From: an uncultured delta proteobacterium
GTDB taxonomy: Bacteria > Myxococcota > Myxococcia > Myxococcales > Anaeromyxobacteraceae
Reading direction: 5' to 3'
Assembly: GCA_963766715.1 (NCBI GenBank)
Contig: CAVYBH010000015.1
Span: 32,001 to 96,000 of the forward strand
Length of the DNA stretch: 64,000 bases
Positions 47,840-64,000 of this stretch are shown here, in pieces (within the stretch, counting starts at the first letter, position 1; each line of letters starts with the position of its first letter). Both the position numbers and the translations under genes were made by a program. The notes beneath the pieces are model-generated. The model did no database searches and was not told the DNA's origin. It saw nothing but the letters and a program-made list of their open reading frames with translations.

Positions 47840-49132
47840 TCAGCGCGCGACGCCGGACAGGACGACCGCCACCCCGCCGCTCGGCGCCGCGGCGAGCACG
47901 CCCGCGAACCCGGAGGTCCCGGTGGCCGACGCGGACACGCCGGCGTGCGCCCGGACCAGGTCGCGCGCGCGCTCGAGCAGCTCCTCGCCCACGATCACGG
48001 GGTGGCCGGCGCTCTCCCGCATGCCTTCCACGATCGCCCACCAGTCGTAGGTCTCGTCGTCGAGGATGCCGTCGGCGACGCTCGCCGGCGCTTCCTCCCA
48101 GGGCCACATGTAGCGCGACCGGTGGTGGGCGGCGTCGGGGAGCGCCACGCCGGAGGCGAGCCTCCAGGCCCGCTCGAGCGGCGCGCAGGCCGCCGTCTGC
48201 ACGGCGACGAGCCGGGGAAGCCGGGGCAGCACGCCGTGGGCGGCGGCGATCGAGAAGCCCTGGGCGAGCCCGCTCGCCAGCGCGCCTCCGCCCACCTGGA
48301 CGAAGAGGGACCCGGGGCTCGCTCCGGCGTCCCGCAGCCACTCGGCCATCTCGAAGGCGAGCGTCCGGCCGCCCTCCACCGCGAGCCCGTTCGCGGTTCC
48401 CTGGACGCCGAACGGGATGGCGCCGGCCGACACCGCCTCGACGAAGCGCAGGTAGCAGGGATCCCCGGCCTCGCCCGGACGCCGTTCACACACGGTGATG
48501 GCGGCGCCGAGGTCTCGCAGCCGCTTCACCACCGTCGGGCTCGCGCTCGGGGGGATGAAGACGTCGAGCGGCCAGCCGGCGGCGCGGGCGATCACCGAGG
48601 CCGCGAGCGCCGCGTTCCCGCAGGAGGCGATGGCGAGCCGCCGCTTCCGGAGCCCCTCGCCGGCCGGCAAGCCCGCCTCCTCCAGCACCCGGAGGTAGAG
48701 CATGACCCCCATGAGGTGGCGCGCCTTGTGGGAGCCGGAGACGTTCCCGGTCTCGTCCTTCGCCCAGAGCGGCCCCTCGATCCCGGCCGCCCGGGCGAGC
48801 GCGGGCTGAGCCGCCATCGGCGTGACCCGGAACCCGCGGCCGTCGACGTTCGCGAGCGCCTCGTCGATCCGCCCCACGATGTCGATCCACGCGCCGTCGG
48901 GCAGCCCGGACTGGCGGGCCAGCCGGTAGGGGGAGAGCAGCGTCCGGTAGCGGACGAAGGGATCGGGCTCCCGGCCTCCCGGGAACGCCTCGTCGGACGC
49001 CTCCGGGACGAGCACGTGGTCGGTGTCGTCGCCGGGCGCGCCGGCCGCCGGGCATCGGAACGGCAGCGCCCGGGCGGGATCGACGATCGCGCCACACCCG
49101 TGGCAGCGGAAGCGGACGGCTCCCGGGGTCAT
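47840..49132 (-). CDS. Fold-type II PLP-dependent enzyme, threonine synthase-like
   Basis: N-terminal RCHGCG..RCP; KDETGNVSGSHKARH (PLP Lys), ASCGNAA, QVGGGAL, VADGILD, SG near C-terminus. Confidence 0.85.
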   Translation of the reverse strand: MTPGAVRFRCHGCGAIVDPARALPFRCPAAGAPGDDTDHVLVPEASDEAFPGGREPDPFVRYRTLLSPYRLARQSGLPDGAWIDIVGRIDEALANVDGRGFRVTPMAAQPALARAAGIEGPLWAKDETGNVSGSHKARHLMGVMLYLRVLEEAGLPAGEGLRKRRLAIASCGNAALAASVIARAAGWPLDVFIPPSASPTVVKRLRDLGAAITVCERRPGEAGDPCYLRFVEAVSAGAIPFGVQGTANGLAVEGGRTLAFEMAEWLRDAGASPGSLFVQVGGGALASGLAQGFSIAAAHGVLPRLPRLVAVQTAACAPLERAWRLASGVALPDAAHHRSRYMWPWEEAPASVADGILDDETYDWWAIVEGMRESAGHPVIVGEELLERARDLVRAHAGVSASATGTSGFAGVLAAAPSGGVAVVLSGVAR

Positions 49133-49137
49133 GCCGC

Positions 49138-61075: not shown

Positions 61076-62493
61076 ATGTCCCCGGGCATCCGCTTCATCC
61101 TCGACGGCCAGGTGCGTGAGCTCGATCACGTCGACCCCACCTTGACCGTGCTCGACTGGCTCCGCGGGCCCGGAGCGCCGGTGCGGGTCGAAGGAAGGCT
61201 GCCGCGAGGGGGACTGCGGCGCCTGCACGGTGGTGCTCGCCGAGCTGCACCGCGGCGAGCTCCGCTACCGGGCGGTGAACGCCTGCATCCTCTTCGTCCC
61301 GGCGCTCGACGGGAAGGCGCTGCTCACGGTGGAGAGCCTGGCCGCCGCCGGGCGAGACGCTCCACCCGGTGCAGAAGGCCATGGTCGACTGCCACGCCTC
61401 CCAGTGCGGCTTCTGCACGCCGGGGTTCGTGATGTCGCTCGTCGCGCTGTACGAGAGCGAGCCGGCGCCGACCCGCACCCGGATCGACGAGGTCCTGGCG
61501 GGGAACCTGTGCCGCTGCACGGGCTACCGGCCCATCGTGGAGGCGGCCGGGCAGGCCTGCCAGGACGGGGGCCGGTCGCGCCTCGCCGAGCACCAGGCGG
61601 CGCTCGCGGCCCAGCTCCGCGGCATCGCCCGCGAGGGCACGCTCGAGCTCGAGCACGAGGGGCGGCGCCTCCTCGCCCCGCGCACGGCCGACGCGCTCGC
61701 CGAGATCGTGCTGCGCCACCCGGGCGCGCACCTGCTCGCCGGCGGCACCGACGTCGGCCTCTGGGTCACCAAGCAGCACCGCCAGCTCGACGCGCTCGTC
61801 TACCTGGGAGCGGTCGAGGAGCTCGCCTCGGTCACCGACACGGGGACGCACGTGGAGGTCGGCGCCGCGGCCACCTACACCGACGCGCTCGCCGTCCTGT
61901 CCGGACGGATCCCGGCGCTGGCGGCGCTCGTGCGGCGCATCGGGTCCCAGCAGATCCGCAACGCGGGCACGCTCGTCGGAAACGTCGCGAACGCTTCGCC
62001 CATCGGGGACACGCTGCCGGCGCTGCTCGCGCTCGGGTCCTCGGTGGTGCTCCGGCACGGCGACGACCGCCGCGAGATCCCCCTCGACGCCTTCTTCCTC
62101 GACTACCGCAAGACCGCGCTCCGGCCCGGCGAGTTCATCGAGCGCGTCCGCATCCCGGTGCCGGAGGCGGGCGTTCGCTTCGGGACCTACAAGGTCTCGA
62201 AGCGGTTCGACCAGGACATCTCGGCCGTCTGCGGCGCCTTCGCCGTGCGGCTGGAGAAGGGGCAGGTGAAGGACGCGCGGCTCTGCTACGGGGGAATGGC
62301 GGCCATCCCGAAGCGCGCGCGCGCCTGCGAGGAGGCGCTTCGCGGCAAGCCCTGGACCGAGGAGACCATCGCGTCGGTCCTCCCGCTCCTCGACGGCGAG
62401 TTCCGCCCGCTCTCCGACATGCGGGCGAGCGCCGCCTACCGCACGCGGGTCGCCCGCAACCTGCTTCGCAAGTTCCAGGCGGAGGCCACGTGA
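61076..62493 (+). CDS. xdhA: Xanthine dehydrogenase small subunit (2Fe-2S + FAD); frameshifts near 61170 and 61345
   Basis: SKEGCREGDCGACTV, SQCGFCTPGF, GNLCRCTGYRPI, AGGTDVGLWVTK, QIRNAGT..N.ANASPIGD, YKVSKRFDQDISAV. Confidence 0.94.
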
Positions 62494-64000
62494 AGCGCCC
62501 CCGTCGAGCGCGCCCGGCCGTCCACGCGCCGCTGCCCCACGACAGCGCCGAGCGCCACGTCCGCGGCGAGGCCCTCTACGTCGACGACATCCCCGAGCCG
62601 GCGGGCCTCCTGCACGCCTACGTCCGCCTGAGCGAGCGCGCCCACGCGCGGATCACCCGGCTCGAGGTGGGGGCCGCGGCCGCGTCGCCCGGGGTCGCGG
62701 CGGTGATGACCGCCCGGGATCTCCCGGCCGGCAACGACGTCGGCCCGGTGCTTCCGGGCGATCCCATCTTCGCCGACGGCCTCGTCGAGTACTTCGGGCA
62801 GTCGATCTTCGCGGTGGCGGCCGACACGCAGGAGAACGCCCGCCGGGCCGCCCATCGCGCCGAGATCGCCTACGAGGACCTCCCCGCCATCCTCACCGTC
62901 GAGGAGGCGCTGGCGAGGAAGTCCTTCGTGCTCCCCACCGAGGTGCTGCGCCGCGGGAAGCCGGAGGCCGCGCTGGCCCGCGCCCCGCGCCGGCTCGCCG
63001 GGCGGCTCCACATCGGCGGCCAGGATCACTTCTACCTCGAGGGGCAGATCGCGATGGCGGTGCCGCGCGAGGGGGGAGACCTGCTCGTCCACAGCTCGAC
63101 GCAGCACCCCACCGAGGTGCAGCACCTGGTCGCGAAGACCCTGGGCAAGCCGGACAGCCACGTCACCGTCGAGGTCCGCCGGCTGGGCGGGGCCTTCGGC
63201 GGCAAGGAGACCCAGGCGGCGCTCATCGCCTGCATCGCGGCGCTGCTGGCCCAGCGCACCGGCCGCCCGGTGAAGCTGCGGCTCGACCGCGACGACGACA
63301 TGCTGCTCACCGGCAAGCGGCACGACTTCGTCGTCGACTTCGACGTGGGCCACGACGACGCGGGGCGCATCCTCGGCCTCGAGCTCGTGCTGGCCTCGCG
63401 CTGCGGGATCTCGCCCGACCTCTCCGGCGCGGTGAACGACCGCGCCATGCTCACGGCCGACAACTGCTACTGGCTGCCGGACGTCTCCATCACGTCGCAC
63501 CGCTGCAGGACGAACACCGTCTCCAACACCGCCTTCCGGGGCTTCGGCGGCCCGCAGGGGATGATGGCGATCGAGTGGGTGGTCGACGAGGTGGCCCGGG
63601 CGCTCGGCAAGGACCCGCTCGAGGTCCGCAAGCGCAACCTCTACGGGACGACGACGCGCAACACCACGCCCTACGGGATGAAGCTCCACGAGAACCCGAT
63701 GCCGGGGATCATCCGGGCGCTCGAGAAGAGCGCCGGCTACGCCGCCCGGCGCCGGTCGGTGGACGCCTTCAACCGCCAGAGCCCCTTCGCGCGGCGCGGC
63801 CTCGCGCTCACCCCGGTCAAGTTCGGCATCTCCTTCACGGCCACGCAGATGAACCAGGCCGGCGCGCTGGTCCACGTCTACACCGACGGCAGCGTCCAGC
63901 TCACCCACGGCGGGATCGAGATGGGCCAGGGACTGTACGTGAAGGTCGCCCAGGTGGTGGCGGACGAGCTGGGGGTGGGGCTCGACCAGGTCCGCATCAT
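62490..64000 (+). CDS. xdhB: Xanthine dehydrogenase molybdopterin-binding subunit, 3'-partial
   Basis: GTGA overlap with xdhA; PHDSAERHVRGEALYVDD, GGQDHFYLEGQ, STQHPTEVQ, RRLGGAFGGKETQ, TGKRH, TAFRGFGGPQG, PVKFGISF, GIEMGQG. Confidence 0.96.
   Translation, partial: MKRPRRARPAVHAPLPHDSAERHVRGEALYVDDIPEPAGLLHAYVRLSERAHARITRLEVGAAAASPGVAAVMTARDLPAGNDVGPVLPGDPIFADGLVEYFGQSIFAVAADTQENARRAAHRAEIAYEDLPAILTVEEALARKSFVLPTEVLRRGKPEAALARAPRRLAGRLHIGGQDHFYLEGQIAMAVPREGGDLLVHSSTQHPTEVQHLVAKTLGKPDSHVTVEVRRLGGAFGGKETQAALIACIAALLAQRTGRPVKLRLDRDDDMLLTGKRHDFVVDFDVGHDDAGRILGLELVLASRCGISPDLSGAVNDRAMLTADNCYWLPDVSITSHRCRTNTVSNTAFRGFGGPQGMMAIEWVVDEVARALGKDPLEVRKRNLYGTTTRNTTPYGMKLHENPMPGIIRALEKSAGYAARRRSVDAFNRQSPFARRGLALTPVKFGISFTATQMNQAGALVHVYTDGSVQLTHGGIEMGQGLYVKVAQVVADELGVGLDQVRI

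Follow-up and report, generated by a model that had tools for sequence, protein, structure and literature searches.

What could complete the reductive degradation of urate in a genome in which YgeW, YgeY and YgeX were not found? The question is raised by ten genes at positions 47840-64000 of a 64,000-nucleotide stretch (G000:C15:32001-96000, G000 being the genome under study), which we call the window and whose proteins have their nearest named homologues in the Anaeromyxobacteraceae. The canonical gene set of E. coli and C. sporogenes is described as XdhD-YgfM or XdhAC together with YgfK, SsnA, HyuA, YgeW, YqeA, YgeY and YgeX (PMC12507026; bioRxiv 10.1101/2025.04.24.650524). As in that pathway, the window combines a molybdenum (Mo) hydroxylase, a YgfK-type barrel, an SsnA-like enzyme and a hydantoinase, next to a purine-oxidising xanthine dehydrogenase. 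Unlike the canonical set, it is without YgeW, carbamate kinase, YgeY and YgeX, its YgfK is without the FAD/NADPH module, YqeB and YqeC were not found, and the carrier, in place of gut bacteria, is a Myxococcota lineage with close relatives in wetland and sediment metagenomes.

We propose, with a probability of about 0.7, that the cluster encodes a variant of the 2,8-dioxopurine (reductive urate) pathway whose lower half would be entirely hydrolytic. It would thus work like the 2,8-dioxopurine pathway yet fail several of the features that define the canonical form. Three swaps would be involved, a D-aminoacylase-like enzyme for YgeW, an AmaB-type carbamoylase for YgeY and a pyridoxal phosphate (PLP) enzyme for YgeX, of which one is published in type and the other two appear well supported by gene context. 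Gene content, absences and co-occurrences are observations, and homology and gene context are the ground for each reaction proposed. The genes are as follows (Moco, molybdenum cofactor).

47840..49132, minus strand: PLP-B, fold-type II PLP enzyme of 430 aa (PF00291); intact frame; candidate YgeX replacement
49138..50634, minus strand: PLP-A, PLP enzyme of fold type II, 498 aa, CysK/CBS-like in its core and with long extensions
50660..51924, minus strand: SsnA-like amidohydrolase; start codon uncertain; insertions near 50848 and 50926
51960..53366, plus strand: dihydropyrimidinase/D-hydantoinase, putative HyuA role; insertions near 52099 and 52851; 3' end approximate
53372..55021, minus strand: D-aminoacylase-like amidohydrolase of 548 aa, putative UacY-type role; insertions near 53865 and 53967
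55018..56250, minus strand: AmaB-type M20 N-carbamoylase (beta-ureidopropionase/L-carbamoylase family) of 410 aa; intact; candidate YgeY replacement
56270..58920, minus strand: single-chain 2Fe-2S/Moco hydroxylase of XdhAC/DOPDH type, FAD domain absent; insertions near 56882 and 58329
59001..61069, plus strand: short YgfK; insertions near 59426 and 60862; 3' end approximate
61076..62493, plus strand: XdhA, FAD/Fe-S subunit of a conventional xanthine dehydrogenase (TIGR02963, 495 vs 467); insertions near 61170 and 61344
62490..64000, plus strand: XdhB, Moco subunit, running beyond the window (TIGR02965, 771 bits on the in-window part)

Integrity of the cluster and the missing genes

All ten genes lie in one stretch, as the sequence-only reading of this DNA had claimed, arranged in divergent and convergent units rather than as one operon. 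The block is real and not a chance one, since gene set and order are the same in genomes G010 and G018, and in G021 except that xdhAB has moved. The G000 genome (4.2 Mb, 72% GC, 84.6% complete) shows 12 net single-base insertions relative to G010, two each in ssnA and the genes for the hydantoinase, the D-aminoacylase-like enzyme, the single-chain hydroxylase, YgfK and XdhA, so that six of the ten cluster genes are broken; frames are intact in PLP-A, PLP-B, the M20 gene and xdhB as far as it lies in the window. Such damage could be taken for a decaying pseudogene island. This is highly improbable and was rejected, as each of the 12 net changes inserts a single base, the extra base is missing at 10 of these sites, among the matches listed, from nearly identical short-read contigs of four runs, recJ and selA are likewise split in the G000 assembly, and the cluster frames are whole in G010, G018 and G021. 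The insertions are therefore assembly errors. Contigs 95-99% alike to the window occur in one sediment and three wetland metagenomes, and distribution of the cluster is patchy, PLP-A being present in 10 of 61 related genomes (G000 counted) and in one of 13 others of the same genus. Two homologues, P0147 and P0461, are assigned by NCBI to Anaeromyxobacter diazotrophicus.

Absences were assessed genome-wide in G000 and four same-family relatives that are 96-100% complete (five genomes). Neither YgeW (TIGR03316) nor YgeY (TIGR03526) is over cut-off in any of the five, and the YgeX model TIGR01747 gave no match at E 1e-25 in G000 or in five same-family genomes. When G000 was searched by tblastn at E 1e-4, E. 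coli YgeX, YqeA (carbamate kinase), YqeC and MocA had no match, YgeW found weak carbamoyltransferase paralogues only and YgeY distant M20 proteins only. The earlier statement that YgeW, YgeY and a canonical YgeX are missing is thus borne out in G000 and the four relatives, and a search beyond position 64000 and through the rest of the G000 assembly did not recover the three genes. Among 33 genomes with PLP-A, one has DpaL over cut-off and another a sub-cut-off fragment, the locus of the latter being without PLP-B. There is also no sign of an oxidative urate route, as HIU hydrolase is over cut-off in none of the five genomes.

Removal of the two ureido groups

In place of YgeW, the ssnA cluster contains a D-aminoacylase (PF07969), the intact orthologue of which matches the D-aminoacylases PDB 1M7J (E 3e-33) and 3GIP/3GIQ (E 5e-23). 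The HxH, Cys, His, His and Asp motifs of D-aminoacylases, which we take to be metal ligands, are kept in the window frames. To place this gene in context, relatives were collected in a metagenome scan (best 80 of 114; 62 genes after dereplication, of which 32 have at least 8 kb of context). In these 32 loci the gene is accompanied by amaB (26), the Mo hydroxylase (21), ssnA (20), short ygfK (17), the hydantoinase (13) and PLP-B (12), and by ygeW in a single case. A true D-carbamoylase (E 1e-126 to 1FO6) holds the place of the D-aminoacylase next to amaB and ygeX in two loci, which indicates a D-configured alpha-ureido substrate. A published parallel is C. difficile, where the D-aminoacylase homologue UacY is reported to stand in for YgeW and YqeA and, with HyuA, to convert ureidomethylhydantoin to albizziin in vitro (PMC12507026). 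Like UacY, the window enzyme would, quite probably, hydrolyse the D-configured 2-ureido group. Searches of plasmids and of the Atlas for a UacY-like sequence returned only generic D-aminoacylases.

The M20 enzyme, whose gene overlaps that of the D-aminoacylase-like enzyme by 4 bp, passes TIGR01879 (406 vs 204) and matches the beta-ureidopropionase PDB 8C46 at E 2e-95; its match to E. coli YgeY is not significant (BLAST E 0.06) and it falls in a separate clade. By these sequence comparisons it is a member of the AmaB family, unrelated to YgeY beyond the superfamily. It is single-copy in all five genomes, and among 56 loci (not dereplicated) whose upstream DNA was long enough, amaB adjoins the D-aminoacylase gene in 50. 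The order ygeX-amaB-D-aminoacylase was found in four loci (L161, L208, L216 and L231) and ygeX-amaB-D-carbamoylase-PLP-A in two more; all five of these six ygeX genes that were scanned, three of them from the first group, pass the DpaL model NF006058. Placed next to DpaL, the hydrolase pair would most simply yield diaminopropionate. The pair is also adjoined by a pbuX/uacT permease in two dereplicated loci. Hydrolytic removal of the ureido groups, as suggested by the sequence-only reading, is therefore favoured by neighbourhoods in which the two hydrolases are accompanied by ssnA, the Mo hydroxylase, a nucleobase permease and genuine DpaL/YgeX.

A characterised enzyme of the AmaB family is reported to prefer beta-ureidopropionate and to leave N-carbamoyl-D-amino acids untouched (PMC10952681), as would be expected if the work were shared with a D-specific partner. 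The window enzyme shares the M20 family, the motifs and, we would expect, the beta-ureido preference of AmaB/PydC (PDB 8C46; PMC10952681); unlike the usual AmaB/PydC, it has as partners DpaL or PLP-B and either a D-aminoacylase or a D-carbamoylase, and PreA was not found in the genome. As albizziin is 2-amino-beta-ureidopropionate, a beta-ureidopropionate analogue, this enzyme probably hydrolyses its 3-ureido group to give diaminopropionate.

An alternative already recognised from the sequence is that the hydantoinase and AmaB perform ordinary pyrimidine reduction (dihydrouracil to beta-alanine), with short YgfK in the part of a dihydropyrimidine dehydrogenase linked to ferredoxin, either exclusively or in addition to another role. 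The hydantoinase does pass a dihydropyrimidinase model, AmaB is close to 8C46, and the YgfK architecture is one that Li et al. (PMC12507026) call PydA-like. We nevertheless consider this improbable: PreA (NF006183), the first enzyme of that route, is over cut-off in none of the five genomes, and AmaB travels with the D-aminoacylase, ssnA, the Mo hydroxylase, DpaL and a purine permease, none of which uracil needs.

The proposed hydrolytic route would release ammonia and pyruvate without making carbamoyl phosphate, and hence would yield no ATP by carbamate kinase. As UacY is published and assayed (PMC12507026), the exchange of a D-aminoacylase for YgeW is not new, and the earlier suggestion of an alternative lower pathway retains its novelty for the AmaB and PLP exchanges only. 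In a literature search that left subscription papers and study supplements largely outside, we found no published account of AmaB replacing YgeY, of the PLP pair, of the shortened YgfK or of this cluster in Anaeromyxobacter.

Two PLP enzymes and the YgeX position

DpaL/YgeX, CysK/CBS and ThrC are all fold-type II PLP enzymes; PLP-A has a CysK core and PLP-B a ThrC/dehydratase core, and a close solved structure was found for neither. PLP-B is distantly ThrC-like, with an N-terminal CxxC...C motif, and scores below the threonine synthase model cut-off (79 vs 303 bits). It forms a long-branch clade of its own, apart from YgeX and from the ThrC-like gene of G000 on contig C12, shares 26% identity with YgeX across 209 aa and, like PLP-A, passes no family cut-off (DpaL, CysK, ThrC). 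Its structural model (pLDDT 91) fits best the folds of threonine synthase and serine racemase (TM about 0.58), and also threonine deaminase. A search of the Atlas with PLP-B gave unannotated PALP clusters and one threonine synthase cluster, and a literature search gave no paper confirming the ThrC phosphate-binding residues.

PLP-A, the stop codon of which lies 5 nt upstream of the PLP-B start, has no significant match to YgeX and at least 8000 homologues. It is below the CysK model cut-off (67 vs 351 bits), higher-scoring CysK/CBS-like genes being present elsewhere in G000, and its sequence matches in the PDB are cysteine synthases at E 1e-14 or weaker; the best folds for its model (pLDDT 93) are CysK/CBS. 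The CysK motifs are kept (Lys112, the PSTGN loop, NQF, SGSGGT and HNIQGIG), with roles that we assume from CysK, Lys112 presumably forming the Schiff base.

Which of the two occupies the position of YgeX was examined in a GTDB scan with a PLP-A alignment (best 80 of at least 599 stretches). PLP-A and PLP-B occur together in 53 of the 80 loci, PLP-B always directly downstream. ssnA is present in 25 loci, 23 of which have PLP-B and none ygeX. Where 8 kb was available on each side (43 loci), 27 have PLP-B only, six ygeX only, one both and nine neither (Fisher p 0.0045, with kin not independent), and the 62 dereplicated D-aminoacylase genes are accompanied by ygeX in six cases, by PLP-B in 13 and by both in none. 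PLP-B, not PLP-A, fills the YgeX slot. It is the better YgeX substitute because PLP-A occurs with true DpaL and no PLP-B in seven of the 80 loci, and a dereplicated ssnA cluster (L199) has PLP-B with no PLP-A within 16 kb. The earlier idea that the PLP pair deaminates the diamino acid can thus be kept for PLP-B, which alternates with YgeX, but not for the pair as a unit, as PLP-A occurs with either. Deamination of diaminopropionate to pyruvate by PLP-B is somewhat more probable than its opposite. Judging from its sequence, PLP-A probably carries out a beta-elimination or beta-replacement on diaminopropionate or albizziin; that it does so here as an accessory CysK-type enzyme, perhaps on the other enantiomer of diaminopropionate, has rather less than an even chance.

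The same upper pathway could also end differently, with PLP-A splitting albizziin (beta-elimination of urea) or making serine or cysteine from diaminopropionate, and PLP-B acting next, for example as a serine dehydratase. The retained CysK motifs of PLP-A, the serine racemase and threonine deaminase folds of PLP-B and the frequent pairing of the two genes are consistent with such an ending, as is a D-serine-dehydratase-like gene in six of 80 PLP-A loci and one of 80 D-aminoacylase loci. We regard it as rather unlikely, since urease is over cut-off in only one of the five genomes, AmaB is retained beside the PLP pair, and each PLP gene occurs without the other in the L199 cluster and the seven DpaL loci.

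The PLP genes are also found in other settings. In the 25 loci with PLP-A and ssnA the ureido steps vary independently, with ygeW in 14, an aspartate transcarbamoylase (ATCase) paralogue in 13, a ygeY-like gene in five and amaB in one. The ATCase paralogue lies beside PLP-B and a divergent ygeW, with ygeY absent, in L035, L036, L038, L040, L042, L057-L059, L071, L075, L081, L089 and L109, and probably serves the other ureido group as a further carbamoyltransferase; pseudo-ATCases next to ygeW have been noted earlier (PMC4016543). A second ThrC-like clade, nearer to ThrC than PLP-B is, stands next to ssnA in nine of 40 other Myxococcota loci (the best-scoring 40 from 184 genomes with a match), none of the nine having ygeX, and is possibly an independent YgeX replacement; members near ssnA, ygeY or short ygfK are found in the Myxococcota loci L114, L134, L137, L141, L142, L145-L148 and L026.

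Three alphaproteobacterial loci (L087, L097 and L107) combine PLP-A and DpaL with an M24 peptidase, an AsnC regulator and an amino-acid ABC transporter, to which L087 and L107 add an M20 hydrolase and an arylmalonate-decarboxylase-like racemase. We take these to resemble ectoine catabolic clusters, and their route would end in diaminopropionate, perhaps with a five-membered ectoine analogue as substrate. In ten other loci from proteobacterial and other metagenome-assembled genomes (L043, L051, L056, L066, L070, L073, L079, L091, L103 and L106), the genes after PLP-A encode a two-subunit CoA-transferase and a luciferase-like oxidoreductase dependent on F420, and many of these loci also carry F420 biosynthesis genes and an XdhABC set; this context would represent a second pathway for PLP-A. 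PMC11193023 mentions a 52-kDa PF00291 protein of Bilophila wadsworthia, excluded there because of its size, and also a 'threonine synthase' without cysteate lyase activity; these two might be relatives of PLP-A and PLP-B.

The upper pathway, selenium and significance

Past position 64000, contig C15 continues with xdhC and genes for a small Zn-deaminase, an adenosine deaminase, an 8-oxoguanine deaminase and two BMP-family ABC transporters. We infer that these, with XdhAB, form a purine funnel, in which imported purines would be deaminated and oxidised to urate by XdhAB. The intact orthologue of the single-chain hydroxylase (879 aa, no FAD domain) passes TIGR03311 (889 vs 830), and the enzyme is 26% identical to E. 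coli XdhD and keeps the catalytic Arg and Glu positions; the alignment column of XdhD E606 adjoins a gap. Residue numbers (A1078, F1009) are those we take to apply to this family, with positions anchored on the window XdhB, and all 50 orthologues have Thr at the position of DOPDH A1078. This Thr agrees with the DOPDH signature of Liu et al. (bioRxiv 10.1101/2025.04.24.650524), and the FAD-less single-chain enzyme resembles C. sporogenes XdhAC as described for the canonical pathway. It quite probably reduces urate to 2,8-dioxopurine.

The window YgfK matches E. coli YgfK at residues 7-414 and 905-994 only, residues of about 415-904 having no counterpart, so that the N-terminal flavin barrel is joined straight to the C-terminal 2[4Fe-4S] domain and the FAD/NAD(P)H module is gone. 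Neither this loss nor the frameshifts figured in the sequence-only reading. It is about 680-690 aa long in G010 and G021, with the same layout in G018, and short ygfK also occurs in six of the 40 other Myxococcota ssnA loci. This enzyme likely reduces the ring with ferredoxin instead of NADPH. A ferredoxin-like gene adjoins the cluster in nine of 80 loci and a pyruvate:ferredoxin oxidoreductase gene in four (two after dereplication); G000 encodes a 64%-identical oxidoreductase elsewhere. Genes for pyruvate:ferredoxin oxidoreductase and a small ferredoxin border the cluster in L199, L202, L203 and L183, an arrangement through which electrons from the end product might return to the two reductases in a closed loop; the L199 group retains only a short piece of the hydroxylase. 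SsnA is the best family for the SsnA-like enzyme (39% to E. coli SsnA), and the intact hydantoinase orthologue passes TIGR02033 (545 vs 393), with 36-45% identity to E. coli HyuA. Together the two very probably open both rings to give 2,3-diureidopropionate. At the other end of the cluster lies a putative cNMP-binding/CBS/DUF294 nucleotidyltransferase gene (45532-47436, minus strand), which was not seen next to the cluster in relatives.

The C. difficile variant offers a parallel here too: XdhD and UacX are both without FAD modules and probably use ferredoxin (PMC12507026), and the single-chain hydroxylase and short YgfK of the window are likewise without them; a D-aminoacylase homologue replaces YgeW and YqeA in C. 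difficile and would do so in the window. As described, however, C. difficile retains YgeY and YgeX, needs SelD and YqeB, and has a PydA-like UacX as reductase, where the window has a shortened YgfK.

According to Liu et al. (bioRxiv 10.1101/2025.04.24.650524), YqeBC and SelD are present in every cluster-bearing gut strain of their set and DOPDH requires SelD. The earlier proposal to search for selenium-cofactor genes led to selD in G000 (C9:55113-55955, with one in-frame TGA that presumably encodes selenocysteine), and yqeB and yqeC were not found. Across 43 genomes with the cluster, the TIGR03311 hydroxylase is present in 34, selD in 40, selA in 38 and selU in one. As selA is so widespread, selenocysteine use explains the presence of selD, and an orphan selD as a pointer to a hidden selenium-cofactor trait was ruled out. 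Weak yqeC-like matches lie next to PLP-A in two of 80 loci; the genome-wide yqeC search covered five genomes. In the actinobacterial class of G064 (121 genomes), 41 have a TIGR03311-type hydroxylase and 77 selA, selA being somewhat more frequent where the hydroxylase is present (34 of 41 genomes, vs 43 of 80; p 0.0015, from a hand count with kin not independent). No shared new gene emerged from selD neighbourhoods in 16 genomes, and no recurring in-frame TGA was found in the cluster genes.

Several observations weigh against the pathway that we propose. Asn stands at the F1009 position in at least 48 of 50 hydroxylase orthologues, where DOPDH is reported with Val; the YgfK orthologue scores 388 against a TIGR03315 cut-off of 835, and the intact SsnA orthologue 250 against a family cut-off of 455.5. 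YqeB and YqeC are over cut-off in none of the five genomes, and yqeB in one of the 43 cluster genomes, with one more just under. The six most divergent D-aminoacylase loci (66-72%) have neither amaB nor ssnA, and the window subfamily, which may be either orthologous to UacY or a parallel recruit, is only about 30% identical to generic D-aminoacylases. L219 has ygeW, ygeY and carbamate kinase alongside amaB and the D-aminoacylase gene, L068 has both PLP-B and ygeX, and 23 of 46 PLP-B loci are without ssnA in the fetched flank. Moreover, G000 is 84.6% complete and frameshifted, and the survey loci are best-scoring matches, many on short contigs, with kin not independent.

Some of these points, namely the Asn, the SsnA score and the missing YqeB/YqeC, together with the occurrence of PLP-A in unrelated contexts (CoA-transferase and F420 genes; M24/M20 peptidases), would also be expected if the cluster degraded another N-heterocycle or purine derivative by analogous chemistry. 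This too is improbable, given that XdhAB, xdhC and the adenosine and 8-oxoguanine deaminases adjoin, that a xanthine phosphoribosyltransferase gene lies next to the cluster in relatives and a pbuX/uacT permease inside related clusters, and that the same hydroxylase family shares many loci with ygeW and carbamate kinase (PLP-A survey, best 80). Urate thus stays the favoured substrate. More tentative, with clearly less than an even chance as a whole, is a joint picture of a mobile environmental form common to Anaeromyxobacteraceae and alphaproteobacteria, driven by ferredoxin via short YgfK, with stereo-complementary ureido hydrolases, new reactions by two PLP enzymes (a diaminopropionate lyase of ThrC descent and, of CysK descent, a beta-lyase/synthase for albizziin or diaminopropionate) and a Mo enzyme matured without YqeB/YqeC, using sulfur in place of selenium or an unknown selenium route.

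The survey of Li et al. counted PF00291 as YgeX and PF01546 as YgeY (PMC12507026), and, scored in this way, could not separate the substitutes discussed here. If our reading is correct, AmaB carbamoylase gains a candidate natural substrate, and candidate functions emerge for two large PLP families that are without annotation and at present carry the wrong labels of cysteine synthase and threonine synthase. The cluster could help to settle the order and configuration of ureido removal, a question raised in PMC12990295, since with a D-specific and a beta-specific hydrolase there is less doubt about the order than with YgeW and YgeY. A urate reductase that needs no YqeB/YqeC would bear on the engineering of uricolytic probiotics, for which cofactor demand is a stated limit. 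The pathway was described in 2025 as gut-enriched, selenium-dependent and ATP-yielding (PMC12507026; bioRxiv 10.1101/2025.04.24.650524); the present cluster suggests that a version without gut enrichment, selenium dependence or ATP yield may exist in anaerobes outside the gut.

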